A stretch of DNA of 24,000 bases. It comes from Candidatus Bathyarchaeota archaeon B26-2. GTDB taxonomy: Archaea > Thermoproteota > Bathyarchaeia > Bathyarchaeales > B26-1. The stretch covers positions 45,772 to 69,771 of the forward strand of contig LUCE01000002.1 of assembly GCA_001593935.1 (NCBI GenBank). The letters are read 5' to 3'. Within the stretch, counting starts at the first letter, position 1. Each line of letters opens with the position of its first letter. Positions 4,676 to 23,966 of this stretch are shown here, piece after piece. Both the position numbers and the translations under genes were made by a program. A model generated the notes under the pieces. The model was not told the DNA's origin and made no database searches. It worked only from the letters and a program-made list of their open reading frames with translations.

Positions 4676-6607
4676 TTGAGAGAGGTGGTCGTTGGAATAA
4701 TCGGCTGTGGAACGGTTGCGGAGTCTATACATCTCCCTGCTCTGAAGATGATCTCTGAGATTGAGATTGGAGCTCTAGCGGACATAGATGAGAGGAGAGC
4801 CTCACACCTCCTGGAAAAGTTCCACTTAGAGGACGCCTCGGTCCACAGAGATTACCGGGATCTCCTGAAGAACCCGGAGATCGAGGCGGTCTGGGTTCTA
4901 ACCCCTCCGAGGTTCCACGCCGAGATCTCTCTCGAGGCCCTGAAGAACGGGAAGCACGTCCTCGTCGAGAAGCCTTTGGCCACTAGCCTTGAGGAAGCCG
5001 AGGTCATTAGGGAGACCCTGAGGAAACATGGCGCCGGGGGATGTGGAGACCGACCCAAGGGACCGGTTCTCATGCCCGCTCACAACTTCGCCTTCACCCC
5101 ATGCTTCGAAAGGGCGCTCGATCTTCTAGAAGGAGACGCTTTAGGTGACATTAAGGAGATTAGGGGACGAACGGTCTCGAACCTCGCCTTCTACAAGGCT
5201 AGGACAGACTTCAGGCTTCAAGCTAAGGGCGGAGTGATCGAGGACCAGATGCCCCACATCCTATACTTGGCTAGGAGGGTTGGAGGCCCGTTTCGGAGGG
5301 TTCTCTCGCTTGAGCCGTATGGTGAGGGGAGACCCCTGATTGAGGACGCTCGGGTGAGGGCTGAGCTCGGAGATGGGGTGAAGGCGGACCTCTCAGCTGC
5401 TTGGTCAGGGTTTATTCCAACCTTTAAGCTCACGGTCGTTGGAGATGAAGGTCGGCTAGAGATGGATCTCCTCAGGAGACCCTACAACCTCACGGTCTTT
5501 AGAGGTGACGAACGTGAGGAGATTAAGTTGGGTCGGGGCTTCCTCCAGTATCTAGACGTCTTGAGGGGTAGACATCCGTCTTATCTTAGGGAGGACCTCC
5601 ACTTCGTCGAGGTTGTGAGGGGTGAGGCTGAGCAGAGGATAACCGTAGACGAAGGCGTCGAGGTTGTGAGGGTTCTGGACGAGATTATGGAGGTCCTTGA
5701 GAGCCGACCTAAACCCTCAGTTGGGATGGAGAGAGTTGCTCTGGTCCGTGTTGAGGACGGGGACGTGAAGAGGGCGATTCGCGAGTCCATAGCCCTCCTC
5801 GGAGGCCTAAACTTTAAGAGTGGGTCTCACGTAATCGTCAAGCCTAACATCTGTTTCTGGAAGAACACCGAGAACATGGTTATAACGGACCCGAGGATAC
5901 TTAGGGCTGTTCTGGAGATTCTGGATGAGAGAACAGACCAGATCACCGTCGTCGAGTCTGATAACAACTCCGGCCCAGCCGAGAAGCGGGCTGAGAAGAC
6001 CGGGGTTCTAGAGGTGGTCGAGGAGTGTGGAGCCGAGTTCCTGAACCTAAGCCATGACGAGTACGTTGAACACGAGGTCGCCGGCTTCAAGATAAGGCTT
6101 CCAAAGACCGTTCTGGACGCGGACTACCTCGTTAACCTCCCGAAGATGAAGACCTGTAATGTAGCCAACACGTTGATCACGGTAGCGATGAAGAATATGT
6201 TCGGGGTCATAGCCGACAAGAAGAAGGTCCGACTCCACAAGAGGCTGGTTGATGTTCTCCTATACGTGAATAGGACTATCCGCCAAGACCTCATCATAGT
6301 CGACGGCGTAACGGCCATGGAGGGACTCGGCCCAATATGGGGAACCCCGGTCCAGCTCAACCTCATAGTCGCCGGAAGAAACCCAGCGACCGTTGATACG
6401 CTCTGCTGCCACATCATGGGGATAAATCCCTACTCGGTTGAGGTTCTCTGGAGAGCCTACAAATCCGGCATGAGCGAGATAAATATAGAGCGTATAGAGG
6501 TCCTCGGCGAGAAGGTTGGAGATGTGAAGAGAAGATTCTCATACCCAATCTTCCTAAAGAAGAACATCACAGGGGCAATAAGGACGGCTCTAAAGACGTA
6601 CCTATAA
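4676..6607 (+). CDS. two-domain fusion protein: Gfo/Idh/MocA-family NAD(P)-dependent oxidoreductase (N-terminal) + DUF362 domain (C-terminal)
   Basis: TTG start at 4676, with GTG at 4685 also possible. The N-terminal part has a Rossmann signature VVVGIIGCGTVAESIHLPAL and HVLVEKPLA (the EKP motif of the Gfo/Idh/MocA family). From Met351 (nt 5726) the sequence looks like DUF362: RVALVRVED.., SGSHVIVKPNICF, DNNSGP, VNLPKMKTCNVANTLITVAMKNMFG, IIVDGVTAMEGLGPIWGTP, VAGRNPATVDTLCCHIMGINP. No stop codon separates the two parts. Confidence 0.7.
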   Translation: MREVVVGIIGCGTVAESIHLPALKMISEIEIGALADIDERRASHLLEKFHLEDASVHRDYRDLLKNPEIEAVWVLTPPRFHAEISLEALKNGKHVLVEKPLATSLEEAEVIRETLRKHGAGGCGDRPKGPVLMPAHNFAFTPCFERALDLLEGDALGDIKEIRGRTVSNLAFYKARTDFRLQAKGGVIEDQMPHILYLARRVGGPFRRVLSLEPYGEGRPLIEDARVRAELGDGVKADLSAAWSGFIPTFKLTVVGDEGRLEMDLLRRPYNLTVFRGDEREEIKLGRGFLQYLDVLRGRHPSYLREDLHFVEVVRGEAEQRITVDEGVEVVRVLDEIMEVLESRPKPSVGMERVALVRVEDGDVKRAIRESIALLGGLNFKSGSHVIVKPNICFWKNTENMVITDPRILRAVLEILDERTDQITVVESDNNSGPAEKRAEKTGVLEVVEECGAEFLNLSHDEYVEHEVAGFKIRLPKTVLDADYLVNLPKMKTCNVANTLITVAMKNMFGVIADKKKVRLHKRLVDVLLYVNRTIRQDLIIVDGVTAMEGLGPIWGTPVQLNLIVAGRNPATVDTLCCHIMGINPYSVEVLWRAYKSGMSEINIERIEVLGEKVGDVKRRFSYPIFLKKNITGAIRTALKTYL

Positions 6608-6675
6608 CTGTCTGGAACGGGACTTCCTCTGGGTGGGAGTTGACGGTATTAACCACGAAGCATGTTAAGGACGTT

Positions 6676-6990
6676 CTACTGGTCTGAGATTCTCTCCAGC
6701 TTGAAGATCACCGGTCTATAACCGTCTGTGCAGCACGTAACGAAGAGTCTAGGTCCTCCTCGAGCCATCCCCCAAACGATCTTCTGTATATCGGCCCACG
6801 CCCAACCGCAGAAGCCCTTGGGCATAACCCAAGGTGTGTCCTTAGACACTGTAAACTCTTGCCCCTCCTTGAACTTCTGGCATGGTCTCCAGCCTGAGGG
6901 GTTCTCCGTATACTTCTCCACCAAATCCTTGTGGAAGAGCCTCTTTACCACCGTGATCTTGACCTCGTAACGTTCTGGAAACAATTCCAC
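6676..6990 (-). CDS. small Cys-containing conserved hypothetical protein, TIGR04076-like
   Basis: The core is YEVKITVVKR...CQKFKEGQEFTV...PKGFCGWAWADI...FVTCCTDGYRPVIFKLERI, which matches my recollection of the ~90-100 aa TIGR04076 family. The ORF track extends it to a GTG at 7071. However, a strong TATA-like box (minus strand AAATATTAAAG, 7042..7032) lies inside that extension. In-frame GTG (6990) or TTG (6984) starts follow a GGTGG motif, so I call the shorter form. Confidence 0.55.
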   Translation of the reverse strand: MELFPERYEVKITVVKRLFHKDLVEKYTENPSGWRPCQKFKEGQEFTVSKDTPWVMPKGFCGWAWADIQKIVWGMARGGPRLFVTCCTDGYRPVIFKLERISDQ

Positions 6991-7004
6991 AAACCACCAT
7001 AATT

Positions 7005-7025
7005 CAAGTATTCCAAGTATTCCAA
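7005..7025. repeat. perfect tandem 9-nt repeat (CAAGTATTC x2.3)
   Basis: CAAGTATTC occurs at 7005-7013 and again at 7014-7022, followed by CAA. The repeat lies between the TATA-like box and the likely start of the TIGR04076-like gene. In the extended ORF it would encode GIL-GIL. Confidence 0.6.
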
Positions 7026-7031
7026 TCCCTA

Positions 7032-7042
7032 CTTTAATATTT
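7032..7042 (-). promoter_or_regulatory. TATA-like box (AAATATTAAAG on the minus strand) upstream of the TIGR04076-like gene
   Basis: An A/T-only 11-mer sits about 40 nt upstream of the in-frame GTG/TTG starts at 6990/6984. GGTGG lies just before those starts. Confidence 0.4.
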
Positions 7043-7089
7043 CTTCTTGACACCTCCGGGGGAAGGCTCACTCAGGGTCTACGGGTCCG

Positions 7090-9096
7090 TTAAACTGAAC
7101 GACCGGTTAGGTTCTCCTCCAAGAGGTTGAGTATTTCTCCGGCCAGTTCGGCTTTCTTCCCATCGAAGTCTCGAACTCTACCTCTCTGGTCTATTAGGTA
7201 CGCCTTATGGCATTCGCCTCTTATCTCTGATAGGTCGTTGGCGACGATTATTGCGGCTTTGACTCTCTCAAGTTCGTCTTGAGCTCTCCTTATGAGCTCC
7301 TCTCTGGAGACCTTATACTCAAGTTTGAAGCCGACTATCCTCACGTCCGGATATCTCCTAGAGACCTCGCCTATAACCTTGACCGTCGGGATGAGGTTAA
7401 CGGTCCACTCGGCTCCGGACTTAACCTTCTCTGCTTCGTATGTGGCGGGCTTGAAGTCGAGTATGGCGGCTGAGAAGACCGCAACTTCGTATCTTCCGGT
7501 CTCGAGCTCAGTCAGGGCCGCCTTCAGCATCTCCTCAACCGTGTAGACCTTCACGACCGGTATATACTCAGGGAATCTCACAGTCCCAGGCCCATATATG
7601 ACCTTGACCTCGCAGCCTCTCTGGAACGCCTCCTTCGCTAGCCAGTACCCGATCTTACCCGAAGCCTTGTTGGATACGTACCTAACCGGGTCTATGTCGT
7701 AGCGTGTCGGGCCGGTGAGGATGAGGATTCCTCTACCCTTCAAGATGCTTGTTGAGAGGCTTCTGATGACGTAATCTACCGCCTTCTCCACAGAGGCGAC
7801 CTTGGCGGCCCCCTCACTTATCCTCGGCTCAACTAAGGTTACGCCGAGCCTCTTAAGCCTCTTTAATGCCTCCCTAAAAGCCGCGTTCATATAGAGCCTC
7901 AAGTTCATGGCTGGAGCTACAACGAGACGAGTCGGACTGGTCGAAGCGCAGAGCGTCGTAACAGCATTATCAGCTACACCCCGGGCAACTTTACAAACCG
8001 TATTCAACGTCGCAGGATAGACCAAGACAAGGTCGTAATCCACCAAGTGTTCAGCCGCACCTGTGAGCCCCAAGACGACCGGCCTCCCAGTCGCCCACTC
8101 CATAACCTTCGGGCTTACGCCATACTCAACGGCGGCCGAGGTCATGTAACATTGTACCTCAGCGCCGTGTCTCCTGAGCCATCTAGCCAGCTTGGGAGCT
8201 TCAATCGTTGCGACACTCCCAGTTAGGCAGAGTGCCACCCTCTTACCGGAGAGCTTCATGCTCTCCTTGGAGAGTTCGATAACTGGAGCAGCGGCGTCCA
8301 CAGTGGTGTAGGCGGCGTCTCCACCACCTTTAGGGAGTATGTGACTGTAATCTAGGAACCGGCCTTCACAGGGGTTTCCCCGGCAGTAGAGGATTCTAGA
8401 GTCTCCCAGATTCTTGGCTACAGCCATGATAGTTGAGGAAGACATGTACCAACCGACCTCCCCATGGTAGCAGATCGAACCCCTACCACGCTCCTCTCCA
8501 TGGTCGGAGGCCACGCGTCTCAACTCCTCGAGAACTCCTTTCAGCCCTTTAGGTTCAATCTGGGAGGCGAGCTCTACCGCTCGCTTTCTTCTCATCTCCA
8601 CGTACTTCATGAGGTCTTCGGGAACCCGCTCAGTTCTGACCCATTCTTTAACAGTCAGGTTTGTGAAGATGTGTACGCCGGGGTTTAGAGGCGTAATCTC
8701 TACTCTCTCATCTTTGAGTATATGGAACGCCTCCCTCGAATCGGCTAGGAGAAAGTTTCCCCTCCTGTACCCTTTGGTGAGCTCCATCTCCATGTAATCT
8801 GCAGCCTCAGAAGCCTTAGAGAAGTGGGTTAAGACATCCATCAGGAGGAGGCCCCTACTCCTATAGGCTTTTAAGGGTCCATCTGTATGCTGGTCGGTAG
8901 CAGCGGCGAAGAGACCTACTTTGTTAAAGCCTACCCACGTTCCCTTGGAGGATGCGTCCACCGGATGATAAGCCTCGAACCTACCTTTAGATACTCTAGG
9001 CGGCTCCTCGAATGACCCTGTTCTGGCGTAGCGGTTATGCATCGCCACAACGTGGAAGCCTTCTAGAAGCCGATACAACATTATCAGAGTGCACAT
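7090..9096 (-). CDS. coaBC: three-domain fusion: TANGO2/NRDE (DUF833)-like domain with N-terminal Met-Cys + phosphopantothenoylcysteine decarboxylase (CoaC) + phosphopantothenate-cysteine ligase (CoaB)
   Basis: A single 668-codon ORF. Residues 1 to about 256 carry TANGO2/NRDE blocks: MCTLIML, HNRYAR, KGTWVGFNKVGLFAAATD, SRGLLLMDVL, GNFLLAD, PGVHIFTNL. Residues 280-445 form the flavoprotein CoaC domain: KRVALCLTGSVATIEAPKLARWLRRHGAEVQCYMTSAA, YPATLNTVCKVARGVADN, APAMN. Residues 452-668 form CoaB: ILILTGPTRYDIDPVRYVSNKASGKIGYWLAKEAFQRGCEVKVIYGP, SAAILDFKP, EKVKSG. Confidence 0.85.
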   Translation of the reverse strand: MCTLIMLYRLLEGFHVVAMHNRYARTGSFEEPPRVSKGRFEAYHPVDASSKGTWVGFNKVGLFAAATDQHTDGPLKAYRSRGLLLMDVLTHFSKASEAADYMEMELTKGYRRGNFLLADSREAFHILKDERVEITPLNPGVHIFTNLTVKEWVRTERVPEDLMKYVEMRRKRAVELASQIEPKGLKGVLEELRRVASDHGEERGRGSICYHGEVGWYMSSSTIMAVAKNLGDSRILYCRGNPCEGRFLDYSHILPKGGGDAAYTTVDAAAPVIELSKESMKLSGKRVALCLTGSVATIEAPKLARWLRRHGAEVQCYMTSAAVEYGVSPKVMEWATGRPVVLGLTGAAEHLVDYDLVLVYPATLNTVCKVARGVADNAVTTLCASTSPTRLVVAPAMNLRLYMNAAFREALKRLKRLGVTLVEPRISEGAAKVASVEKAVDYVIRSLSTSILKGRGILILTGPTRYDIDPVRYVSNKASGKIGYWLAKEAFQRGCEVKVIYGPGTVRFPEYIPVVKVYTVEEMLKAALTELETGRYEVAVFSAAILDFKPATYEAEKVKSGAEWTVNLIPTVKVIGEVSRRYPDVRIVGFKLEYKVSREELIRRAQDELERVKAAIIVANDLSEIRGECHKAYLIDQRGRVRDFDGKKAELAGEILNLLEENLTGRSV

Positions 9097-9123
9097 ACCA
9101 AACTACTCTGCCCCAATCTCCTT

Positions 9124-9143
9124 AAAAAGGGTGCCTCGGCACC
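9124..9143 (-). terminator. hairpin plus T5 run downstream of pncA
   Basis: The minus strand reads GGTGCC-GA-GGCACC followed by CTTTTT, 10 nt after the pncA stop and about 30 nt before the coaBC-fusion ATG. Confidence 0.4.
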
Positions 9144-9152
9144 GGCTCCCCT

Positions 9153-9776
9153 CTACTCCAAGTCTGAGAGGATTACCCTCTTAACTCCCTTCCGGGTCAT
9201 CTCCTCGACCGCTCTCTCACTGTCTCCAGGTTGAACGTCGACTCCTTGTATGGCGTCTAATAGCAGGAAGGTCTCGAAGCCGTATCTAAGCGCGTCGAGA
9301 ACTGTGCTCTTAACACAGTAGTCGGTTGCTAGCCCCCCAACGAAGACTCGTTTAACGCCTCGACTCTTCAAGTTCTCCTTGAGGTTTGTGCCCTCAAACC
9401 CTGAGTAGGCCTCCTTGTCGCGTTCTGTTGCCTTCGAGATTACTATGGTGTCGTCTGGAAGCTTAAGGTCGGGGTGAAACTCGGCGCCTCGTGTCCCTCG
9501 TATACAGTGAGGCGGCCAGTCGCCTCCATACTCCCTAAACGACTTGTGGTCTGGTGGATGCCAATCCCTCGTCGCGTATATGGGCGCCCCAACCTTCCTG
9601 AATCTCTCTATATACTCGTTCAGAACCGGGACGACCTCGTCACCCTTTGGGACGGGTAGGGCTCCTCCAGGACAGAAGTCCCTCTGAACGTCTACAACGA
9701 TTAAGGCGTCTCCCTTACCGATCTTAACCTTCATAGCCAACCTCCCAACGGCTCCGTCTCTTGAGATACACATCAT
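9153..9776 (-). CDS. pncA: nicotinamidase/pyrazinamidase (isochorismatase-like hydrolase)
   Basis: Motifs are ALIVVDVQRDFCPGGALPV, the metal site ATRDWHPPDH, and the catalytic Cys in GLATDYCV. The start could be ATG 9776 or ATG 9734 (MKVKIGKGDALIVVD). A T-rich TATA-like element (minus strand TTTATTTTTT, 9809..9800) about 24 nt upstream of 9776 would fit a leaderless long form. Confidence 0.85.
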   Translation of the reverse strand: MMCISRDGAVGRLAMKVKIGKGDALIVVDVQRDFCPGGALPVPKGDEVVPVLNEYIERFRKVGAPIYATRDWHPPDHKSFREYGGDWPPHCIRGTRGAEFHPDLKLPDDTIVISKATERDKEAYSGFEGTNLKENLKSRGVKRVFVGGLATDYCVKSTVLDALRYGFETFLLLDAIQGVDVQPGDSERAVEEMTRKGVKRVILSDLE

Positions 9777-14140: not shown

Positions 14141-15184
14141 TCAACCAAGCGAGGCCAGATCCAAGAATATCTGGGAGCAGCAGAGAGAGGAGAAGGAGAC
14201 CTCCAGCCCTAGTCTCTCAGCCTCCTCTATGGCCGCGTCACTCGGGAACGCTATGGCGTTGATGCCGGCCCTAACGGCTAGTACATCCGTCGCGTTTCTG
14301 TGTTCCCCCTTCGGCCTTGCACATCCAAGCGCCATAGGGACATCCGGCATCATGAACCTGGCTTCAGTTAAGACTTTGGCGACGACGTTTGGCGGGGGAG
14401 GACTAACAGACTCCATCAATGTGCCCTTAATCGGAAAGAATACTATCAATATTAGGGCTGAGGGCCGATATCTCGAGATCATCCTCAGAGCTTCTAGTTC
14501 ACCCCTGAGTTCCCCGTAATGGAGCCCTACCAAGACGTGTGGAACAAACTGGATTCCAGACTCCTTGAGAGCCCTCAAGGACCGCTCGAAGTCTCGTGTG
14601 GTCGCGTTGAGCCTATAGACGTCCTTGACAGTCTCGTCTGAGCCGATTATATCGATCAGGACAGCGTCCACGCCAGCGGCCTTGAGCATCTCAGCGGTCT
14701 CCAGATCGATGAGGCCTGTATGGACAACGACGGTCAGTCCAAATCTCTCCTTTACCTTGGAGATCGTTTCGATGAAGGGTTTGATCGGGACTTTGCCGTC
14801 GATCGTGCATCCACCGCTTATCAAGCACCCGACTCCGCCTCTCCGCTTTATCTTTGAACAGACTTCTAGGAGCCTCTCAGGAGACTGGGCTGGGATCATC
14901 GTTCGCAGCAGTCTCCCACCACAGTGTCTACAGTTGAGGGCGCACCTAACCCCTGTTATGGAGATCGATGGAAAGATTCCACTCGGCCGACGGATAAGTT
15001 TACTCTCGTGGTGAATAAAGCTCGGGAGATAGAACCAGATATGTCTCCCGAAGTTTCTCCAGCTGATACTCCCAGCCCTCGAGATGGCATCCTCTAGACC
15101 CTCCAACTTCATGAGGCTCTTCTCTGCAGAGTAGGTGCCTCCCTCCGGCATCTTCATGTCCAGGGCTCCTCTAGGGCTTCTCAA
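14141..15184 (-). CDS. radical SAM protein, BioB/LipA-like (candidate LipS-type lipoyl synthase subunit)
   Basis: The CX3CX2C motif is in GVRCALNCRHCGG. Other motifs are GCLISGGC, VVHTGL and ALGCARPKG, with a C-terminal CC. The start is uncertain: TTG 15184, or ATG 15157/15151. Confidence 0.7.
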   Translation of the reverse strand: MRSPRGALDMKMPEGGTYSAEKSLMKLEGLEDAISRAGSISWRNFGRHIWFYLPSFIHHESKLIRRPSGIFPSISITGVRCALNCRHCGGRLLRTMIPAQSPERLLEVCSKIKRRGGVGCLISGGCTIDGKVPIKPFIETISKVKERFGLTVVVHTGLIDLETAEMLKAAGVDAVLIDIIGSDETVKDVYRLNATTRDFERSLRALKESGIQFVPHVLVGLHYGELRGELEALRMISRYRPSALILIVFFPIKGTLMESVSPPPPNVVAKVLTEARFMMPDVPMALGCARPKGEHRNATDVLAVRAGINAIAFPSDAAIEEAERLGLEVSFSSLCCSQIFLDLASLG

Positions 15185-15313: not shown

Positions 15314-16984
15314 GTGACGGTGACCCGTTTAAGACTTGAGGCTCCCATTACTCTGTGGCGGTTTAAGAAGTTGAACGCGGAGGCCCTGACATTAGAGGAT
15401 TATAGAACTGTCTGCAGGGTTATGGGTGAGAGTTGTAGGAGAAAACTTGGAGAAGCCTTCCAGTCTATATACAGCAAGCATAAGGTGTTAGACCTGACCC
15501 CGGGCTACAGCGACCTCGATTTGAGGGCGGTCTGTAGCGGAAAGACTGTCGAAGAATGGTCAAAGATAGGTTTCGCGATCTCCCAAGTTTACCTCGAACT
15601 CCTACGTAACAACCCGAGATACAGCAGAATCCTAGAGCATCCTCCCGGCTTCATAATCTCAACCGAAGAGGTACCCAACTACATACGATACCACCCAGCT
15701 GTAGCTGAGTGGGACCTAATGTTCGGCTTCCCCCTCATAGATGCGGATTCGTCCATACCCTTCGACCAAGCCAAGAGAGCCATCCTGAAAAGTTTCATGG
15801 CCTTATACGGAGTCTACAGACCGGAGCTCGACCCTCCCGTAAACATCGACAAAGGACTACTGGGAACCTATCACATCTACGGCAGAATCATGCACCATCT
15901 GGCTCCAGCCTTGAAGGCGGGTATGAGCCTAATACTCGGACGCCAACTGAAAAGCAAGGTGGAGGCCTTTAATGAGGCTCTCCAACACTTCCCGGATAAC
16001 TCCCTCTTGAAGGATATCCAAACGATAATGGGGCGAGCATATAGGGTAAGCGCTCCCCCACACAGCCGTTGCCTGCGAGAACTCGACCTAAAGGTCATCG
16101 AGTTTCTAAGTTCCATCTTCGAGGCGATCCGTGAGAGGCACCCTTTAGAGAGTTGGCTAGAGAATACTCGTCCCGCGAGGCTTTGCCAAGAGAAGCCTAA
16201 CGGCGAGCCGGTTAAGACTATAGAGCGTTTAGAGGAGGCATTACGTGAATGGGTTGAACATTCCAGAATGGAGGAAAACCTGCGGACGGCTATCCTCTAT
16301 AAGAGCCCAATAACTAACGCACGCCATCTGATCCTAGTCTTCCGTGAAGGAAGCCTACGGGGAATAACTCGCGTGAGAGGCATCCCTAAAAGACTTGTCT
16401 CAAAGGTCAGATACGCCCTTAAAGGAGGGCGAGAAACCAATCTCTCCTCAATACTGATCTCGACAGAGGGAGAGTTCCTCTATAGGTATCTGTTGGCTTA
16501 CCCCACCGATCTATACTCGATCTTTTACAGCGGGGAGACGATCTTCGGAGAGGACTTTATGGAGTGGGTTCCTCACCCTAGAAAGGAGATGCTCATGGAC
16601 GAGGCTCTGGGAAGGATGTGCATCCTTACGGGAGTCTGTAGGTCTAGGGTCGGCATCCTCGCGTACTTGAGGGACGCCCCACCCTTCTTCGCTACGTCCT
16701 TCCTCAAGAGGAGGTGCTTTGAGGAGATAAATGAGATCATGGTCTCGATGCTGGTATCACACGGATTGACGGCACAAGGATGCGTCCCCATGACCTTAAA
16801 GGATGGACTCAACATCCTTAAGGACGGTCTGGCGGGGCGTCGTGAGTTGAGAGCCTTGGATGATCTCTACTCTCTGACCTTAAACCCTAAGAGAGTAACC
16901 AACGGCGCCATAAACTTGGCTATCGAACTCTTACCGGTTCTAAACCGGGTTGCTGAGAGGGTTTACTCGGAGGTCTTTTCTTGA
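15314..16984 (+). CDS. hypothetical protein, 556 aa, no family recognised (weak nucleotidyltransferase-like SDLDL motif)
   Basis: A long GTG-initiated ORF with codon usage like its neighbours, predicted mostly helical. The only motif I can point to is PGYSDLDLRAV (aa 63-73), with a downstream acidic EWDLMFG (aa 132-138). Confidence 0.6.
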   Translation: MTVTRLRLEAPITLWRFKKLNAEALTLEDYRTVCRVMGESCRRKLGEAFQSIYSKHKVLDLTPGYSDLDLRAVCSGKTVEEWSKIGFAISQVYLELLRNNPRYSRILEHPPGFIISTEEVPNYIRYHPAVAEWDLMFGFPLIDADSSIPFDQAKRAILKSFMALYGVYRPELDPPVNIDKGLLGTYHIYGRIMHHLAPALKAGMSLILGRQLKSKVEAFNEALQHFPDNSLLKDIQTIMGRAYRVSAPPHSRCLRELDLKVIEFLSSIFEAIRERHPLESWLENTRPARLCQEKPNGEPVKTIERLEEALREWVEHSRMEENLRTAILYKSPITNARHLILVFREGSLRGITRVRGIPKRLVSKVRYALKGGRETNLSSILISTEGEFLYRYLLAYPTDLYSIFYSGETIFGEDFMEWVPHPRKEMLMDEALGRMCILTGVCRSRVGILAYLRDAPPFFATSFLKRRCFEEINEIMVSMLVSHGLTAQGCVPMTLKDGLNILKDGLAGRRELRALDDLYSLTLNPKRVTNGAINLAIELLPVLNRVAERVYSEVFS

Positions 16985-17020: not shown

Positions 17021-18067
17021 ATGTTCTCTGGGTTAGAGGATCGGATGAGGAAGACTGAGAAGCCGGAGGGTGAGACCTTCTCGCACGGTATGGTCCGCGT
17101 CTCTTTAGGTTCTGCCATCCTGCTCGGTCTGATGAGGGGCCGGCTTGACGCCGAGCCTACAACCATCTATCTGCTCACTTATAGACGTGGAAGATGCACG
17201 GCCAACTGTGGCTTCTGTCCTCAAGCGAGGGGCTGCACGGGGCGAGCTGACATGCTCTCTAGGGTTGTTTGGCCACCGTTCCCAGCGGCCAATGTTATAG
17301 AACGCATAGGAAAAGCCTACATAGACGGAAGGGTCAAAAGGGTCTGCATCCAAGCTCTAAACCATCCGGATATACTCGAGGAGATAATCTCCCTTGTAAG
17401 AATGATAAGGCTTACTTCATCGGTTCCGATCTCGGTCTCCTGTCAACCTCTACAGAAGGAGGAGATGGTCCGCTTACGTGAGACGGGGGTTAACCGGGTC
17501 AGCATAGCCCTAGACGCCTCAACCCGAGACATCTTCAACGAGGTTAAGGGCACCTCTGCTGGAGGCCCATACACTTGGGATGGACATATGAGGGCGCTTA
17601 AGGATGCAGTTGAGGTCTTTGGAGAGGGCTCCGTCACAACCCATCTAATAGTCGGCTTAGGTGAGTCTGAGGAGGAGGCTGTTCGAACGATACAGTTATG
17701 CCACGATATGGGGGTCTATCCCGCCCTCTTCGCTTTCACACCTATACCCGGAACCAGAATGGCGAAACGTCCAAGCCCACCTCTCGAAAAGTATAGGAGA
17801 ATCCAGGTCGCCCAGTATCTTATAACCCACAACTTGGCACGCTACGCGGATATGACCTTTGAGGAAGGCCGCCTCAGAGATTTCGGGGTTCCAAGGAACC
17901 TTCTATTGAAGATCGTGGAGTCCGGTAGGCCCTTCATGACGACGGGATGCCCGGGATGCAACAGGCCGTACTACAATGAGAGGCCGGGCGGACCCCTCTA
18001 CAACTATCCGAGGAAGCCTAAGCTCGAGGAGGTAACCGAGATCAAGAGGCAGCTCGGTCTTCAGTAG
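17021..18067 (+). CDS. radical SAM protein, biotin-synthase-related family (candidate LipS-type lipoyl synthase subunit)
   Basis: The CX3CX2C motif is in RGRCTANCGFCPQ, followed by LSRVVWPPF. Other motifs are SIALDA, THLIVGLGESEEE and a C-terminal TTGCPGCNRPYYNE Cys pair. A TATA-like AAAAAAGTTTATAG at 16993-17006 sits close to ATG 17021. ATG 17045, preceded by GAGGA, is therefore an alternative start. Confidence 0.7.
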   Translation: MFSGLEDRMRKTEKPEGETFSHGMVRVSLGSAILLGLMRGRLDAEPTTIYLLTYRRGRCTANCGFCPQARGCTGRADMLSRVVWPPFPAANVIERIGKAYIDGRVKRVCIQALNHPDILEEIISLVRMIRLTSSVPISVSCQPLQKEEMVRLRETGVNRVSIALDASTRDIFNEVKGTSAGGPYTWDGHMRALKDAVEVFGEGSVTTHLIVGLGESEEEAVRTIQLCHDMGVYPALFAFTPIPGTRMAKRPSPPLEKYRRIQVAQYLITHNLARYADMTFEEGRLRDFGVPRNLLLKIVESGRPFMTTGCPGCNRPYYNERPGGPLYNYPRKPKLEEVTEIKRQLGLQ

Positions 18068-18225: not shown

Positions 18226-18978
18226 TTGAAGCGAACCGAAAGTCCCCAGAAGAGGCTCTTAGGACCCCTCGACTTGGCGGCCTCAGCCGTCTTCTCAGCG
18301 TTCGTGTGTGTGGCAACCATAATCTTCACCGTATATGTCCCACAGACGAGGGGGTTCTTCAACATAGGTGAGACGATGATCTACGTAACGGCTCTCCTCT
18401 TCGGGCCCATAGTCGGCGGTATAGCCGGTGGGTTCGGCTCGATGCTGGCCGACGTAATCTTGGGCTACATGGAGTTCGCGCCCGCAACCCTCGTCATAAA
18501 GATGTGCGAGGGCGCTGTTGTCGGCTTCCTAGGCAAGAAGAATCCGAAGAAAGAATCGAAGGATTACTGGAGAGCTACAACCGCCATTCTGGGGATAGTT
18601 ATGGGGCTTCTACTCGCAGTCATAGGCTCAACATACTACAGCGGAGAAGTCGAGATATACTTCGGAACATCAGCTGAGCCCACCTTTACGCCGTGGATTC
18701 CCGCGGAGGTTTGGTACCTGATCGGGGGGCTCGCCGCCTTCTCGATAGTACTCGCCGGGATCAAGCTAGAACCCGAACTGGGATGGACGATCCTCTCGAT
18801 AACTGTTGGAGGCCTAATCATGGTCACGGGATACTTCATCTACGAGTTGTTCTTGGTGGGTCCCGGTGCCTTCGCCGAGATTCCCGTCAACATAGGGCAG
18901 ATGTCAGTCGGTTTGATGGTCTCGATGCCCGTCGTGAGGGCTGTATGGAGATACCTTCCATCCCTAAGAGGGCGATGA
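18226..18978 (+). CDS. ECF-transporter S-component-like membrane protein (substrate unknown)
   Basis: TTG start preceded by GGAGG (18214-18218). The protein has about 6 TM segments. The signature LLFGPIVGGIAGGFGSMLADVILGY..APATLVIKMCEGAVVGFLG is typical of ECF S components. No EcfA/EcfT genes are present in the window. Confidence 0.5.
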   Translation: MKRTESPQKRLLGPLDLAASAVFSAFVCVATIIFTVYVPQTRGFFNIGETMIYVTALLFGPIVGGIAGGFGSMLADVILGYMEFAPATLVIKMCEGAVVGFLGKKNPKKESKDYWRATTAILGIVMGLLLAVIGSTYYSGEVEIYFGTSAEPTFTPWIPAEVWYLIGGLAAFSIVLAGIKLEPELGWTILSITVGGLIMVTGYFIYELFLVGPGAFAEIPVNIGQMSVGLMVSMPVVRAVWRYLPSLRGR

Positions 18979-21231: not shown

Positions 21232-21498
21232 ATGATGAAGAGACCTCTAACATCTCTGAGAGACGGCGAGACCGGGATAATAACATCCATAATGATAGGC
21301 TCGGGGGACGGAAGACGTAGAGGAAGAGCATGGGGCCTAAGGAAGAGGCTCATAGACATGGGCCTAACCCCCGGAACAAAGGTTACCGTTATAAAATCCG
21401 CGCCGTTCCGCGGGCCCGTAGAGATACTCGTCAGAGGGTCAAGGTTGGCCTTAGGAAGAGGCATGGCAGAGAGAGTCTACGTGGAGACAGATAGATGA
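21232..21498 (+). CDS. feoA: ferrous iron transport protein A (FeoA, SH3-like)
   Basis: 88 aa with LTSLRDGETGIITSI, RLIDMGLTPGTKVTVIKSAPFRGPVEILVRGSRLALGRGMAERVYV. GGTGA lies upstream. The stop overlaps the feoB ATG (ATGA, 21495-21498). Confidence 0.85.
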   Translation: MMKRPLTSLRDGETGIITSIMIGSGDGRRRGRAWGLRKRLIDMGLTPGTKVTVIKSAPFRGPVEILVRGSRLALGRGMAERVYVETDR

Positions 21499-23966
21499 CC
21501 AAAAAGAAGCTAAGAATAGCTTTAGCCGGAAACGCCAACGTTGGAAAATCCCTAACCGGAGACTCTGAGGTTATCATCTATCACGAGGGAAAGTGGAAGA
21601 TAGCTCAATTACGAGAGATAGTTGAGCACTCTCTACGCCGCCGACCGGCCGCAAGATACGGGGAGACAGAGATCTCCACACCGAACAATCTCTTCACAAT
21701 ATCACTAGATCCAAAGACGATGAAGGCTGTGAAGGCCAGAGTCTCGAAGGTTCTACGCCACAGAGAGACCCGACGCTTGGTACGGATAAGGACAAAGTCA
21801 GGCCGCGTATTGACCGCCACCAAGGACCATAACTTCATCGTTATGGCGGACGGCGAGCTAAGGGGCTTGGAAGGCGAACACCTATCCTTGGGGGACCGCG
21901 TCCCCGTGGCCGACGGACCGACGCCACCTACTCTGGAAAGACTTGCCTCCATAAACATCTCTTGGGACGTCATAGAGGAGATCGAAGAGGTAGACCCCCA
22001 AGATGGATACGTGTACGACTTGGCCGTTGAAGGTTACGAGAACTTCATGTTGGCCAACGGGCTCTTCGTTCACAACAGCGTGATCTTCAACCAGCTGACT
22101 GGTCTCCATCAACATATCGGGAACTGGCCGGGTAAAACCGTTGAAAAGGCTGAGGGAACCCTCCACTTCAAGGGTTACGAGATCGACATCATAGACCTGC
22201 CGGGCATATACTCTCTCTCAACATTTTCCTTGGAGGAGCTCATCTCGAGAGAGTACATCGCCGTCGAGAGACCTGACCTGGTCATAAACGTCGTAGACGC
22301 CTCGGTTCTAGAGAGGAACCTCTTCTTCACTCTACAGCTGATGGAGCTGGAGACCCCCATGGTGATCGCGCTGAACCAGATGGACGTCGCCGCCAAGAAA
22401 GGGATAAAGATCGACTGCCAAAGACTTGAGGAGCTCCTAAAGGTACCCGTCATTCCGACAGTAGCAATAACCGGGAGAGGAATCTACCAGCTACTGGAGA
22501 GGTCGATCGAGGTCATCGAGAGAGGAGGAATAAAACCCCCACGGATAGAGTACGGAAGAGAGATCGAGAAGAGGATCGAGAAGCTAACAGACTTAGTCAA
22601 GGAGGTTGGGTTCAAGTATCCAGCCCGATGGACCGCCATAAAGCTCTTGGAGGGAGACAGAGAGGTCGAGAGGGAGATCCAGAGGGTTAAACCGGAGATC
22701 ATCCGGACTGCGAGGAGACTCTCCAAGGAGATCGAGAGAATACACGGGCATCCATGTCCAACAGTAATAACTTCTGAACGATACGAGGTTGCCGGTCGAA
22801 TCGTTAGAGAGGCTCAACGGATAGTCGCCCCGATAAGGCCGAGCCTAAGCGAGAGGATACACGCAATCACAACGCACAGGGTTCTCGGCTACTTGGTGAT
22901 GAGCCTTGTCCTGCTCGCGGTCTTCTACGCGATCTTCTCTTTCGGAGACTACACTTCAGGATTACTTGGAGACCTCCTCTACGGGTTGGAACATCCCTTT
23001 AGGACGATCTTCGGGAACGGGTTACTTGGAGACCTCCTCTGGGGAGGAGTCATGGAGGGGCTTATAGCAGGAGTGACGATAGTACTGCCCTACATCGTCC
23101 CTTTCTACCTGATACTCTACATGCTGGAAGACTCAGGCTACTTGAGTAGGATAGCCTTCCTCACCGACTCAATTATGCACAGAATGGGACTCCACGGTAA
23201 AGCATTCATCCCCATAATGTTGGCTTACGGTTGCAATGTTCCAGCGTGCCTCAGCTGCCGGATTATGGAGACTCAGAGGGAACGCCTCTTAGCGGCCTTC
23301 GTCGTAACTCTCGTGCCGTGCGCCGCAGTGACGGTTATAGTACTTGGGCTCGTCGGGAAGTTTGTCGGTATGAACTGGGCTCTGACGCTATACATAATCA
23401 ACATAGCCCTTGTCTTCGCTCTTGGGAGGATGGCCTTCAAGACCTTACCGGGTGAACCCACATCTCTCATCATGGAGATGAGCGAGTATAGGATGCCCCA
23501 CCTCAAGACCGTCCTGAAGCAGACATGGTTTAGGCTGGAAGAGTATATCAAGATGGCCTTCCCGCTAATAATTGTCAGCAGCTTCGTGATTAAGACTATA
23601 GAGGTTCTCGGCCTCCTCGATCTATCTCAAGCCGTGCTCAGCCCCATAACCACGGTTTGGCTTGGACTACCCCCAGAGGTCGGAGTCACCTTGATCTTCG
23701 GAATCCTGAGGAAAGAGCTCATGTTGATAATGCTTGCAGCCCTCCTCGGGACAACAGACTTCGGAAACGTTCTAACACCCACACAGATGATAGTCTTCAC
23801 CCTAGTCGCGATGCTCTACATACCATGCATAGCAACGATAGCCGCCCTCGTAAAGGAATTCGGCTGGAGAAAAGCCCTCCTCATCACAGTCTTCGAGATA
23901 CTCTTCGCGATCTCGGTGGGAGGAATAGCGTTTAGACTACTCAGCCTTATAAATCCCCCTTACTAA
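21495..23966 (+). CDS. feoB: ferrous iron transporter FeoB (GTPase + permease), interrupted by an in-frame mini-intein in the G1/P-loop
   Basis: The G1 motif GNANVGK/S is split. G3 is DLPG and G4 is NQMD. The membrane domain has LEDSGYLSRIAFLTDSIMHRMGLHGKAFIPIMLAYGCNVPA and a second gate region. After removal of residues 19-194 the protein is about 647 aa, a normal size for FeoB. Confidence 0.9.
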   Translation: MTKKKLRIALAGNANVGKSLTGDSEVIIYHEGKWKIAQLREIVEHSLRRRPAARYGETEISTPNNLFTISLDPKTMKAVKARVSKVLRHRETRRLVRIRTKSGRVLTATKDHNFIVMADGELRGLEGEHLSLGDRVPVADGPTPPTLERLASINISWDVIEEIEEVDPQDGYVYDLAVEGYENFMLANGLFVHNSVIFNQLTGLHQHIGNWPGKTVEKAEGTLHFKGYEIDIIDLPGIYSLSTFSLEELISREYIAVERPDLVINVVDASVLERNLFFTLQLMELETPMVIALNQMDVAAKKGIKIDCQRLEELLKVPVIPTVAITGRGIYQLLERSIEVIERGGIKPPRIEYGREIEKRIEKLTDLVKEVGFKYPARWTAIKLLEGDREVEREIQRVKPEIIRTARRLSKEIERIHGHPCPTVITSERYEVAGRIVREAQRIVAPIRPSLSERIHAITTHRVLGYLVMSLVLLAVFYAIFSFGDYTSGLLGDLLYGLEHPFRTIFGNGLLGDLLWGGVMEGLIAGVTIVLPYIVPFYLILYMLEDSGYLSRIAFLTDSIMHRMGLHGKAFIPIMLAYGCNVPACLSCRIMETQRERLLAAFVVTLVPCAAVTVIVLGLVGKFVGMNWALTLYIINIALVFALGRMAFKTLPGEPTSLIMEMSEYRMPHLKTVLKQTWFRLEEYIKMAFPLIIVSSFVIKTIEVLGLLDLSQAVLSPITTVWLGLPPEVGVTLIFGILRKELMLIMLAALLGTTDFGNVLTPTQMIVFTLVAMLYIPCIATIAALVKEFGWRKALLITVFEILFAISVGGIAFRLLSLINPPY
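21549..22076 (+). mobile_element. mini-intein (176 aa, no homing-endonuclease domain) inserted in the feoB P-loop
   Basis: Block A is SLTGDSEVIIY, with Ser1. Block B is TATKDHNF (T-x-x-H). Block F is VYDLAVEGYENFMLANG. Block G is LFVHN followed by +1 Ser. Joining the exteins gives GNANVGK+SVIFNQLTG, which is a canonical FeoB G1 motif. Confidence 0.85.
22962..23040 (+). repeat. exact 19-nt direct repeat spaced 60 nt apart inside feoB
   Basis: TTACTTGGAGACCTCCTCT occurs at 22962-22980 and again at 23022-23040. Each copy encodes LLGDLL. Confidence 0.6.

Follow-up and report, generated by a model that had tools for sequence, protein, structure and literature searches.

A TANGO2/NRDE-family domain joined to the coenzyme A biosynthesis enzyme CoaBC in one archaeal clade

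Introduction

A 24,000-nucleotide stretch of DNA from Candidatus Bathyarchaeota archaeon B26-2 (contig LUCE01000002.1; hereafter the window) carries a gene that raises two questions, namely whether a TANGO2/NRDE-family domain is truly joined there to CoaBC, an enzyme of coenzyme A (CoA) synthesis, and what such a fusion would say about TANGO2. Deficiency of TANGO2 causes a lethal metabolic disease in humans. What the protein does biochemically is disputed, the published proposals being heme trafficking, acyl-CoA binding and a hydrolase activity of unidentified kind. The benefit of vitamin B5 in TANGO2 deficiency is empirical and, to our knowledge, comes without a molecular explanation. Vitamin B5 rescues fly and human-cell models of TANGO2 (bioRxiv 10.1101/2022.11.04.514597), and a CoA salvage defect has been suggested (PMC11179719). 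The human protein has an Ntn fold in which Met1 is lost to expose C2, the proposed nucleophile; its crystal structure holds a phosphate site (R32/K56/R88), and in docking, the pantothenate amide of palmitoyl-CoA comes to lie near C2 (PMC12359130).

Results

Gene and domain organisation

The window contains a single uninterrupted open reading frame (ORF) of 668 codons plus stop at 7090..9096 on the minus strand, as read from the ORF list and its translation. This ORF was the subject of the original prediction, and all of the peptide blocks named there were found in it (MCTLIML, HNRYAR, KGTWVGFNKVGLFAAATD, SRGLLLMDVL, GNFLLAD and PGVHIFTNL), together with the Ala/Gly/Thr-rich linker. The gene, its parts and the preceding intergenic site were assigned as follows.

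7090..9096 (minus strand): whole gene, encoding a TANGO2-linker-CoaC-CoaB fusion protein (ORF list, translation)
8335..9096 (minus strand): TANGO2/NRDE-family domain, residues 1-254, with a predicted Cys-Ntn-hydrolase-type alpha-beta-beta-alpha fold (Pfam, profile, AF2, Foldseek)
8260..8334 (minus strand): variable, disordered linker, residues 255-279 (pLDDT, conservation)
7747..8259 (minus strand): CoaC domain (phosphopantothenoylcysteine decarboxylase, flavoprotein), residues 280-450 (PF02441, TIGR00521, Foldseek)
7093..7746 (minus strand): CoaB domain (phosphopantothenate-cysteine ligase), residues 451-668 (PF04127, TIGR00521, Foldseek)
9121..9143 (minus strand): intergenic hairpin GGTGCC-GAGG-CACC, then CTTTTTAAGG, a terminator-like site (sequence)

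The 90% protein cluster of the ORF has 7 members, drawn from NCBI, JGI, ENA and Logan and located on contigs 18-146 kb long, among them KYH42109.1 (Ca. Bathyarchaeota archaeon B26-2, 668 aa). The fusion is genuine and encoded by one gene, in a Bathyarchaeia archaeon. TANGO2-CoaBC proteins are named simply CoaBC in databases, and no paper on this architecture was found in the literature.

The hairpin may serve the upstream gene as terminator. Some 28 nt ahead of the fusion gene's ATG lies a TATA-like element that might be read as a promoter or as a sign of a leaderless gene. Several orthologous loci have AT-rich elements at a similar distance before the start.

Identity of the N-terminal domain

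The Pfam TANGO2 model (PF05742) matched residues 41-170 with 44.8 bits (E=2.3e-11; gathering cutoff 22.6), spanning profile positions 41-180 of 257, and the clade profile matched the human TANGO2 PDB chains 8sv7/9bwa (E=1e-9). The predicted AF2 model of the domain had a pLDDT of 92.1 and a pTM of 0.91, and the top PDB match returned for it by Foldseek was human TANGO2 (8sv7; E=3.4e-12, TM 0.68), followed by CV2077, acyl-CoA:isopenicillin N acyltransferase, bile-salt hydrolase (BSH), penicillin V acylase (PVA) and NAAA. The acyltransferase entries 2x1e/2x1d were among the best structural matches (E about 1e-9, TM 0.68-0.70). Three independent tests (Pfam, the profile match to human TANGO2 and the predicted fold) thus agree on the TANGO2/NRDE identity first proposed from the sequence blocks, and homologs of the domain carry the annotation 'NRDE family protein'.

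By its sequence, the N-terminal domain is a divergent TANGO2/NRDE subfamily and not a canonical member, since the Asp-Glu of NRDE is replaced. It shares with human TANGO2 (8SV7, 9BWA, 9N1S; PF05742, formerly DUF833) the Met-Cys start, the GTW and SRG motifs, R81, which aligns with R88 of the human chain, and the predicted Ntn fold, whereas identity is about 17% and the NRDE motif reads NRY(A). No conserved residue corresponds to human R32, which aligns (by sequence alignment only) with a non-conserved position in the fusion proteins, and K56 has only a partial counterpart, as it falls in an insertion near K51, with Lys or Arg at residue 51 in 22/40 fusion proteins. Human, bacterial and most archaeal TANGO2 homologs are single-domain proteins of about 250-280 aa, whereas the domain is here covalently joined to CoaBC.

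Conserved residues and selection

Four sites of the TANGO2 domain were followed through the alignments.

9091..9093 (minus strand): TGC codon of Cys2, immediately following the start ATG; candidate N-terminal nucleophile (sequence)
9025..9036 (minus strand): N21-R22-Y23-A24, degenerate NRDE motif with Asn and Arg kept and Asp-Glu replaced (alignment to human N25-R26-D27-E28)
8851..8859 (minus strand): S80-R81-G82, invariant in the 35-sequence alignment and in 40 fusion proteins
8368..8502 (minus strand): invariant set H199, C209-x-H211, S220, Y237 and C243 in the C-terminal half of the domain (alignments)

Cys2 was kept in 34/34 fusion proteins with complete N-termini, and ATG or GTG followed by TGY was found in fused, split and stand-alone loci alike, excepting L021, whose annotated start lies two codons upstream of the Met-Cys (MPMCTL...). 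The degeneracy of NRDE noted earlier for this one protein extends, as NRY(A), across the whole archaeal clade: R22 and Y23 were each present in 40/40 fusion proteins, N21 in 36/40 and A24 in 33/40, and HNRY occurred throughout the clade, while canonical relatives in the same alignment retained NRDE. The C-terminal set showed no variation, either among the fusion proteins (40/40) or in an alignment of 35 sequences with canonical NRDE proteins among them, and the domain has 30 invariant columns. The dN/dS values against B26-1 were 0.11 for the TANGO2 domain and 0.09 for CoaBC, so that both halves are under equally strong purifying selection.

The CoaBC half

NCBIfam TIGR00521 (coaBC_dfp) matched residues 283-658 with 288.2 bits (cutoff 219.7) at model positions 2-390 of 392, covering both halves and bearing out the complete CoaC plus CoaB that had been claimed for residues 280-668. 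Pfam Flavoprotein (PF02441) corresponded to residues 285-445 and DFP (PF04127) to residues 452-624. Foldseek matched 6tgv CoaBC (E=4e-28); the hits bearing on the CoaC part were 6tgv and EpiD, and those on the CoaB part were E. coli and M. smegmatis CoaB with TM 0.85-0.9 (normalised by target). The CoaC His and PXMN and the CoaB Lys are conserved catalytic motifs whose roles are known from E. coli Dfp; H350 was present in 40/40 fusion proteins, PAMN lies at residues 395-398, and K557 was invariant across fused, unfused archaeal-type and bacterial-type sequences. As judged from these matches and motifs, the fusion carries a complete CoaC-CoaB, which catalyses steps 2 and 3 in the making of CoA, starting from 4'-phosphopantothenate.

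The fusion has in common with CoaBC/Dfp (E. coli Dfp; M. smegmatis 6TGV) the TIGR00521 match, the CoaC-CoaB order, the fold, the His, PAMN and the Lys, to which it adds a 279-residue N-terminal extension. Unlike that of bacterial CoaBC, its CoaC flap is of the short archaeal type (SEGAAK), without the ACG..G.GR segment and its Cys. We take E. coli Cys158 to be the Cys of the CoaC substrate-recognition flap; the aligned SEGAAK segment has no Cys and the flap is 6 residues shorter, as is also the case in unfused archaeal-type homologs. Since the flap Cys is missing from these and from some bacterial-type CoaBC homologs, it is not universal among TIGR00521-passing sequences.

Distribution and history of the fusion

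The PF05742+PF02441+PF04127 architecture was found in about 45 clusters at the 90% level (636-681 aa, 42-100% identity), with the TANGO2 domain N-terminal in every fusion protein, and in-frame fusions were seen in independent MAGs (L006-L009, L012, L013, L030, L031). At the 50% identity level, with 1.84 billion clusters in all, they reduce to essentially a single full-length representative, and the fusion proteins thus form one clade. Overlapping split TANGO2/coaBC gene pairs were found at at least three loci (L004, L010 and L024/L025, the last seen in two assemblies), and in an 81% cluster some database entries give the two parts as separate proteins of 237 and 457 aa. Split and fused forms differ only by a frame change inside the linker. 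The fusion is thus not unique to this genome but conserved in one archaeal clade, alternating there with adjacent overlapping gene pairs in related lineages.

Many close archaeal homologs stand alone with coaBC not nearby (Nezhaarchaeota L001, L019/L020, L021, L022), so physical coupling to CoaBC is not obligatory. Stand-alone archaeal NRDE proteins (Nezhaarchaeota P0004; Bathyarchaeia P0016-P0034) have HNRY, Cys2 and all invariant residues in common with the fusion at 42-60% identity, but carry CoaBC neither attached nor nearby. A rough NJ tree places some stand-alone proteins within the fused clade, which suggests an old fusion and a secondary origin for some of the split or stand-alone forms. 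The view that two adjacent genes had been fused is therefore upheld in part: overlapping split pairs exist, but joining is only one possible direction, and the rough tree favours an old fusion. The Rosetta-stone link between TANGO2 and CoA that had been drawn from this gene stands as a conserved association, fused or adjacent. Taken jointly, the anatomy and the conservation of the fusion gene are in our view nearly certain.

Among other neighbours, a pncA-like gene was conserved in close relatives only, and none of the loci retrieved showed a TIGR04076 gene. One canonical NRDE gene lies in an apparent operon with an acyl-CoA dehydrogenase gene, with a 4HBT thioesterase gene nearby (L026-L029; a single anecdote).

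Linker and candidate internal start

Residues 257-273 of the linker (pLDDT < 50) were the sole low-confidence segment of the full-length AF2 model, which had a pTM of 0.89; in this model, the short, linker-only disorder and the pTM suggest a fixed domain arrangement. Majority-residue conservation was 0.27 in the linker versus 0.60-0.73 in the domains. The linker segment ranged from 11 to 26 aa among fusion proteins, mostly 11-15 aa between flanking motifs, and that of the window is the longest. It ends at the following site, which had been put forward as a possible internal ribosome-binding site, fossil or still working, and start for a separate CoaBC.

8257..8268 (minus strand): AAGGAG, AGC and ATG (Met280), candidate internal start (coordinates confirmed, not conserved)

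Both elements are present, the ATG of Met280 at 8259..8257 and AAGGAG at 8268..8263, 3 nt upstream of it, but conservation speaks against their use: Met occupies the residue-280 column in 1/40 fusion proteins, the others having G, D, E, S or T, and the B26-1 ortholog (83% identical) reads ...EESGKLSG... without Met280. In our own judgement the 3-nt gap is poor for a ribosome-binding site, and AAGGAG is better explained by the Lys-Glu codons encoded there.

Discussion

What the TANGO2 domain does beside CoaBC can be answered with graded confidence. A functional coupling of the domain to CoA-precursor metabolism is likely, and a catalytic rather than purely regulatory role is slightly favoured. 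The best explanation overall, which we hold tentatively, is that the domain would be a Cys2 enzyme acting on a pantetheine-type compound and feeding 4'-phosphopantothenate to CoaB. Removal of Met would leave a free N-terminal Cys2, which would attack the acyl-type carbonyl of such a compound, the likeliest target being a 4'-phosphopantothenoyl-amine that is non-productive, damaged or mis-ligated, cut at its pantothenoyl-amide bond. The 4'-phosphopantothenate set free could then be re-ligated to cysteine by the attached CoaB and decarboxylated by CoaC, and the TANGO2 domain would be a salvage or proofreading module of CoA-precursor synthesis. Such a special substrate must be postulated, because hydrolysis of normal 4'-phosphopantetheine beside its maker would be a futile cycle, and any one specific amidase, salvage or proofreading reaction remains doubtful.

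Because the nucleophile would be residue 1 of the mature chain, the TANGO2 domain must be N-terminal in any fusion, and this is the arrangement in every fusion protein. In the alignments, Cys2 in 34/34 and the family-invariant polar residues in 40/40 form the pattern expected of an active site. The Cys-Ntn enzymes (bile-salt hydrolase, penicillin V acylase, NAAA, acid ceramidase, acyl-CoA:isopenicillin N acyltransferase and the peptidase C45-like CV2077) have the fold and the N-terminal Cys candidate in common with the domain, at a sequence identity of 10-17%. Fold neighbours among them cleave 2-substituted-ethylamine amides (taurine/glycine for bile-salt hydrolase, ethanolamine for NAAA) or use acyl-CoA. 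Several require internal autoproteolysis, whereas here Met removal would suffice to expose Cys2. A comparable layout is known from the class II (Ntn-type) glutamine amidotransferases GlmS, PurF and AsnB, in which an N-terminal Met-Cys Ntn domain feeds a downstream synthase domain and the nucleophile requirement forces its N-terminal position; they belong to a different Ntn family, however, channelling in the fusion would be hypothetical, and since the co-substrate of CoaB is cysteine, ammonia chemistry is not expected. Vanin-type pantetheinases cleave the pantothenoyl-cysteamine amide with a Cys nucleophile, as we favour for the TANGO2 domain, but are extracellular animal enzymes of the nitrilase superfamily and not homologous to it.

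Other observations count against the Cys2-enzyme reading. In Cys-Ntn hydrolases such as BSH and NAAA, an Asp at the position of the NRDE Asp assists the N-terminal Cys; this Asp, which follows a conserved Arg, is Tyr here at what we take to be the equivalent position. We know of no TANGO2 protein that has been shown to catalyse any reaction. Mutation of the whole NRDE to AGAA abolished acyl-CoA binding by human TANGO2 (PMC11867700), which also weighs against this reading. So do the many stand-alone homologs at a distance from coaBC and the restriction of the fusion to one clade.

The main rival, which we consider rather unlikely, is a regulatory sensor, in which the domain would bind CoA, acyl-CoA or 4'-phosphopantetheine without turnover and tune CoaB/CoaC by feedback. 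Binding of acyl-CoA, observed for purified TANGO2, is the sole demonstrated biochemical property of a TANGO2 protein (PMC11867700), and CoA and acyl-CoAs inhibit mycobacterial CoaBC, which makes this step a known point of control (PMC7794376). The short linker and high full-length pTM suggest, at the level of the model, a rigid packing that would suit allostery, and with D/E gone from NRDE the domain could have abandoned hydrolysis. The active-site-like conservation of Cys2 and the polar residues nevertheless speaks against a pure sensor, NRDE, needed for human acyl-CoA binding, is itself degenerate here, and the stand-alone members of the clade have no attached CoaBC to regulate.

A thioesterase or acyltransferase is improbable in our assessment. 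Cys2 would then attack the thioester of acyl-CoA or acyl-4'-phosphopantetheine, freeing the thiol or moving the acyl group, and the link to CoaBC would serve to keep the thiol of new or recycled phosphopantetheine unblocked or to lift acyl-CoA inhibition of CoaB, an inhibition seen in mycobacteria. Acyl-CoA hydrolysis was proposed by the crystal-structure authors (PMC12359130), an acyl-CoA-using acyltransferase is among the top structural matches, and the canonical NRDE locus with acyl-CoA dehydrogenase and 4HBT thioesterase genes points the same way, if only as one anecdote. Yet it is not obvious why a generic acyl-CoA thioesterase should be attached to steps 2-3 of the pathway and not to enzymes that use acyl-CoA, no TANGO2 has been reported to act as a thioesterase, and the D/E of NRDE implicated in acyl-CoA binding are gone.

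A neutral fusion, in which overlapping neighbours were joined by a one-base change and the domains act independently, with TANGO2 serving for example in heme trafficking (HRG-9, HtpA), is quite improbable. Since only a frame change within the linker separates split from fused forms, joining or splitting the genes is mechanically simple; many homologs lie apart from coaBC, and heme-trafficking roles are published for bacterial and nematode homologs (PMC10470608). The fused or adjacent association nonetheless holds down to 42% identity while all other neighbours change, linkers are kept short, the heme role is contested (PMC12782551), and independent functions do not explain why coaBC is the only recurrent partner. 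Finally, a stop codon lost through sequencing or assembly error, or a separate CoaBC made from the AAGGAG-ATG at 8268..8257, is very improbable despite the existence of that site, of split loci and of split entries in the 81% cluster, because the 7 database members from different sources and the roughly 45 fused clusters effectively exclude an artefact, answering the earlier worry over a lost stop, and because Met280 is nearly unique and its spacing, by our own judgement, poor, although an extra internal product in this one genome keeps a small probability.

The Cys2-enzyme reading may be carried further. That the whole TANGO2 family, human included, consists of Cys2-dependent pantothenoyl-amide hydrolases that salvage, repair or proofread pantetheine/CoA-type molecules, wired to CoaBC in Bathyarchaeia, is unlikely, but if true, such a hydrolase would recover 4'-phosphopantothenate (or pantothenate), to which CoaBC would re-ligate cysteine at once, and would explain acyl-CoA binding, the phosphate pocket and the vitamin B5 rescue. 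In a bolder variant, the three domains would run a closed cycle from cysteine to cysteamine with 4'-phosphopantothenate as carrier.

For annotation, proteins that databases name only 'CoaBC' call for correction to TANGO2-CoaBC. The conserved and selected fusion is independent evolutionary evidence that sets the TANGO2 family beside CoA-precursor chemistry, and, its partner being the enzyme that forms phosphopantetheine's cysteamine end, the fusion narrows the TANGO2 substrate candidates. The archaeal fusion protein, likely thermostable, would permit direct assay of catalysis, Cys2 dependence and CoaB/CoaC coupling, and the clade-wide fusion offers a concrete, testable lead on TANGO2 function.

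The fusion reading frame and its domains

One unbroken open reading frame (ORF) of 668 codons occupies 7090..9096 on the minus strand of the window (ORF listing and translation), and all of the peptide blocks named in the original prediction of a TANGO2-CoaBC fusion are found in its translation. Domains were assigned with Pfam and NCBIfam.

Domain matches in the fusion protein
aa 41-170: TANGO2 domain PF05742 (Pfam), E=2.3e-11 and 44.8 bits (gathering score 22.6)
aa 283-658: bifunctional CoaBC equivalog TIGR00521 (NCBIfam), nearly end to end, 288 bits (cutoff 219.7)
aa 285-445: Flavoprotein (Pfam)
aa 452-624: DFP (Pfam)

At 90% identity the product falls in a cluster of seven members, which includes KYH42109.1 (Ca. 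Bathyarchaeota archaeon B26-2, 668 aa; annotated as ‘phosphopantothenoylcysteine decarboxylase’) and further copies in JGI, ENA and Logan assemblies, whose contigs measure 18-146 kb. A sequencing error or lost stop codon is ruled out by the occurrence of the ORF in these seven database members and of in-frame fusions in about 45 clusters and many metagenome-assembled genomes (MAGs), and the fusion is not an artefact.

Some gene callers place the start of the fusion protein 16 residues late, at GTG; conservation of the MCTLI... N-terminus in homologs shows the ATG at 9096 to be the true start. A hairpin and T-run (9143..9130) precede this start and TTTTTAAG lies ~28 nt upstream of it, a layout that may reflect a promoter of the gene's own and a leaderless transcript.

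An internal start at Met280, possibly served by an AAGGAG ribosome-binding site, had also been suggested. The ATG (8259..8257) and the AAGGAG (8268..8263) lie where the original prediction placed them, with a spacing of 3 bases, and the start is rejected as a conserved feature: of 40 fusion proteins, that of the window alone has Met280. The column is G, D, E, S or T in the others, with Met missing even from the 83%-identical ortholog of the related B26-1 MAG. The AAGGAG supplies Lys-Glu codons within a conserved K-x-x-K-L-x-G segment, with which unfused CoaBC homologs begin as well, and it is presumably too near the ATG for a good ribosome-binding site. Translation of a separate CoaBC in this genome is improbable, with nothing to support it.

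The substrate flap of CoaC is short (PRISEGAAKV; window 7800..7830, minus strand; aa 423-432) and, unlike the bacterial-type Dfp flap, has no Cys-containing ACG..G.GR segment. The same short, Cys-less flap is common to unfused archaeal-type CoaBCs and one Spirochaetota CoaBC; that the archaeal-type enzymes share it without fusion rules out TANGO2 making up for the missing flap Cys. The manner in which such enzymes complete the reduction step of the decarboxylation may merit attention.

Fold and family of the N-terminal domain

A profile of the archaeal clade matched the sequences of the human TANGO2 structures 8sv7, 9bwa and 9n1s (E=1e-9). Using an AlphaFold2 model of aa 1-265 (mean pLDDT 92.1, pTM 0.91), the best Foldseek match in the PDB was human TANGO2 (E=3.4e-12, TM 0.68), followed in order by CV2077 (3gvz), acyl-CoA:isopenicillin N acyltransferase (2x1c/d/e) and then bile-salt hydrolases, penicillin V acylase, NAAA and acid ceramidase. 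The same fold neighbours were reported for human TANGO2 by the authors of its structure, a Cys-Ntn-hydrolase fold in which C2, bared by loss of Met1, is the likely nucleophile (PMC12359130). In an alignment to the human chain, N25-R26 of the eponymous NRDE motif correspond to N21-R22 of the archaeal domain, whereas D27-E28 are replaced by Y23-A24; the human phosphate ligand R88 corresponds to R81, within an invariant S-R-G.

The full-length AlphaFold model (mean pLDDT 89.6, pTM 0.89; below 50 only at aa 257-273) suggests that the three domains hold a defined arrangement. It matched CoaBC 6tgv, E. coli CoaB and human TANGO2, each separately, and none of its structure matches was a PDB entry spanning all three domains.

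Conservation and selection

dN/dS was calculated against the B26-1 ortholog, the only pair for which it is usable (dS is saturated in more distant pairs); the TANGO2 domain gave 0.11 and CoaC+CoaB 0.09.

Majority-residue conservation across 40 full-length fusion proteins
TANGO2: conservation 0.60, 30 invariant columns
Linker: conservation 0.27, 1 invariant column
CoaC: conservation 0.73, 36 invariant columns
CoaB: conservation 0.66, 27 invariant columns

Cys2 was present in all 34 fusion proteins with complete N-termini, and R22, Y23, Q69, R81, Y110, N114, H199, C209, H211, S220, Y237 and C243 in all 40. Most of the TANGO2 residues found in 40/40 stay invariant when canonical NRDE proteins are added to the alignment, so that, of the family constellation, just the NRDE Asp-Glu pair has been lost. 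The linker measures 11-15 residues between its flanking motifs in most fusion proteins, the longest (26) being that of the window.

Distribution of fused, split and stand-alone forms

A whole-protein search returned about 45 clusters (90% identity level) with all three Pfam domains, which range from 636 to 681 aa in length and share 42-100% identity with the query, drawn from NCBI, JGI, ENA and Logan; the named entries in public databases are called just CoaBC, with the N-terminal domain unmentioned. When 1.84 billion 50%-identity representatives were searched exhaustively, the fused pattern was found in essentially one full-length protein (P0081) and one partial one (P0013), and no other CoaBC with a comparably large N-terminal extension was present among the best 150 matches. 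With essentially one full-length representative at this level, the fusion is therefore confined to one clade. Record titles of the fusion loci are mostly those of Bathyarchaeia/Bathyarchaeota MAGs, in a thin taxonomic survey of 12 loci from a genome scan with the narrow homolog alignment A2; we take the sample and isolate labels to point to Guaymas Basin and hot-spring sediments.

Arrangement of homologous genomic loci, classified by tblastn on the fetched loci
In-frame fusion: L006, L007, L008, L009, L012, L013, L030, L031
Two adjoining, overlapping genes: L004 (14 nt), L024/L025 (11 nt; two assemblies), L010 (about 10-30 nt, by start codon)
Stand-alone TANGO2, coaBC absent from the fetched flanks: L001-L003 (Nezhaarchaeota), L019, L020, L021, L022

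At the split loci the two frames are offset by one base inside the linker. In a neighbour-joining tree of the N-domains (built without support values), fused forms flank a stand-alone Bathyarchaeia subclade on both sides, and split forms and some stand-alone forms nest within the fused clade. Taken at face value, this topology suggests that the fusion is old and the fissions secondary.

Several loci carry irregular forms. The 303-aa protein P0001 (L005, 2673..3584; 66% identical) consists of TANGO2 and the first ~35 CoaC residues before a stop, after which unrelated genes follow (TusA, PAPS reductase), which points either to decay of a fusion or to chimeric assembly. Two otherwise orthologous fused genes change frame, that of the B26-1 MAG in CoaB (L007, 7653..7662) and that of L015 in TANGO2 (6624..6627), probably through assembly errors or pseudogenisation. 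Some NCBI entries of an 81% cluster are likewise divided, into proteins of 237 and 457 aa.

Gene neighbourhood

Genes adjoining the fusion gene in the window
9153..9776, minus strand: nicotinamidase-like isochorismatase gene (pncA-like; nicotinamidase/pyrazinamidase), PRK11609 at 169.6 bits, just under the cutoff of 174
6676..7071, minus strand: Cys-rich TIGR04076-family gene, starting 18 nt past the stop codon of the fusion gene

The isochorismatase gene is the immediate upstream neighbour, in the same orientation, a pairing kept in L006-L008 and not in more distant fused loci. The TIGR04076 gene was seen in none of the other fetched loci, which is weak evidence, several close loci ending at or soon after the fused gene. 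No conserved wider operon was found around the fusion gene in the fetched loci, and the window holds no further CoA-pathway gene. Since other neighbours are not kept beyond close relatives and no further CoA-pathway gene is present, coaBC is the sole recurrent partner of this TANGO2 clade.

The window contains a second gene fusion, a 643-aa ORF at 4676..6607 (plus strand) that joins a GFO/IDH/MocA oxidoreductase (aa 6-339) to DUF362 (aa 386-579). In L019 and L020 the same two parts are separate adjoining genes, with the stand-alone TANGO2 gene a few kb away, which hints at shared synteny. The stand-alone TANGO2 gene also has a myo-inositol-1-phosphate synthase gene within 2-3 kb in L001 (Nezhaarchaeota), L019 and L020 (Bathyarchaeia subclade), which may be mere synteny. 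In L026-L029 a canonical NRDE-motif TANGO2 homolog, P0046 (5001..5747 in L026), sits in a same-strand run of an AidB-like acyl-CoA dehydrogenase, a 203-aa ORF, TANGO2 and Amidohydro_2, with a 4HBT thioesterase gene near; this is another acyl-CoA-flavoured context, anecdotal in that it represents one lineage (four contigs shown of the eight with the protein).

Elsewhere in the window, a FeoB ferrous-iron transporter (21495..23966, plus strand) contains an intein (Pfam Intein_splicing, aa 31-194) that either precedes or interrupts the N-terminal G-domain; the G-domain sequence continues from aa 194. Two radical-SAM genes (14141..15184, minus strand; 17021..18067, plus strand) flank a 556-aa ORF without a Pfam match (15314..16984), and the second is followed by an ECF-type riboflavin-transporter S component (18226..18978).

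Proposed function

These comparisons document a conserved, selected association, covalent or adjacent, of a Cys2-bearing Ntn-fold domain with CoaBC, from which we infer that the two are functionally coupled. Whether the TANGO2 domain is catalytic on a pantetheine-type compound we judge to be about evenly balanced. We favour a catalytic role because no member lacks the Cys at the very N-terminus or the polar constellation, because the domain invariably comes first in the chain, as an Ntn nucleophile needs, and because the enzymes nearest in fold either use acyl-CoA or hydrolyse amides of 2-substituted ethylamines (taurine, glycine, ethanolamine). Pantetheine-type compounds contain a pantothenoyl-cysteamine amide that would fit this series, and hydrolysis of that amide would give 4'-phosphopantothenate, the exact substrate of the attached CoaB. 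Because a futile cycle must be avoided, the substrate would be a non-productive species, for example one whose thiol is damaged or whose amino acid was mis-ligated, and the domain would serve as a salvage or proofreading module. We offer this specific reaction tentatively, as a rather unlikely proposal in itself.

This catalytic salvage reading fits the phosphate pocket of human TANGO2 and the docking of a pantothenate amide near C2 (PMC12359130), acyl-CoA binding by TANGO2 (PMC11867700), rescue by vitamin B5 (bioRxiv 10.1101/2022.11.04.514597) and a suggested CoA-salvage defect (PMC11179719). Against it stand the loss of the NRDE Asp-Glu from the archaeal domain, close homologs that are unlinked to coaBC and a substrate that is hypothetical. 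To our knowledge, enzyme activity has been demonstrated for no TANGO2, which also counts against it.

A CoA/acyl-CoA-sensing regulatory domain, a doubtful but credible alternative, would rest on the sole demonstrated property of TANGO2, acyl-CoA binding, and on the inhibition that CoA thioesters exert on mycobacterial CoaB (PMC7794376). An unlikely alternative is thioesterase or acyltransferase activity towards acyl-CoA or acyl-phosphopantetheine; in its favour are the predicted structural likeness to acyl-CoA:isopenicillin N acyltransferase and a single, anecdotal case in which a canonical NRDE gene shares an apparent operon with an acyl-CoA dehydrogenase. That overlapping neighbours were fused neutrally and serve independent functions, such as heme trafficking, seems very unlikely.

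Both domain families are known. In the full-text literature, mostly outside subscription journals, we found no paper linking TANGO2 to CoaBC, PPCS or PPCDC by fusion or neighbourhood, and we rate TANGO2-CoaBC as a new, conserved domain architecture. Its high interest lies in opening the biochemical function of TANGO2 to direct testing in a tractable archaeal enzyme.
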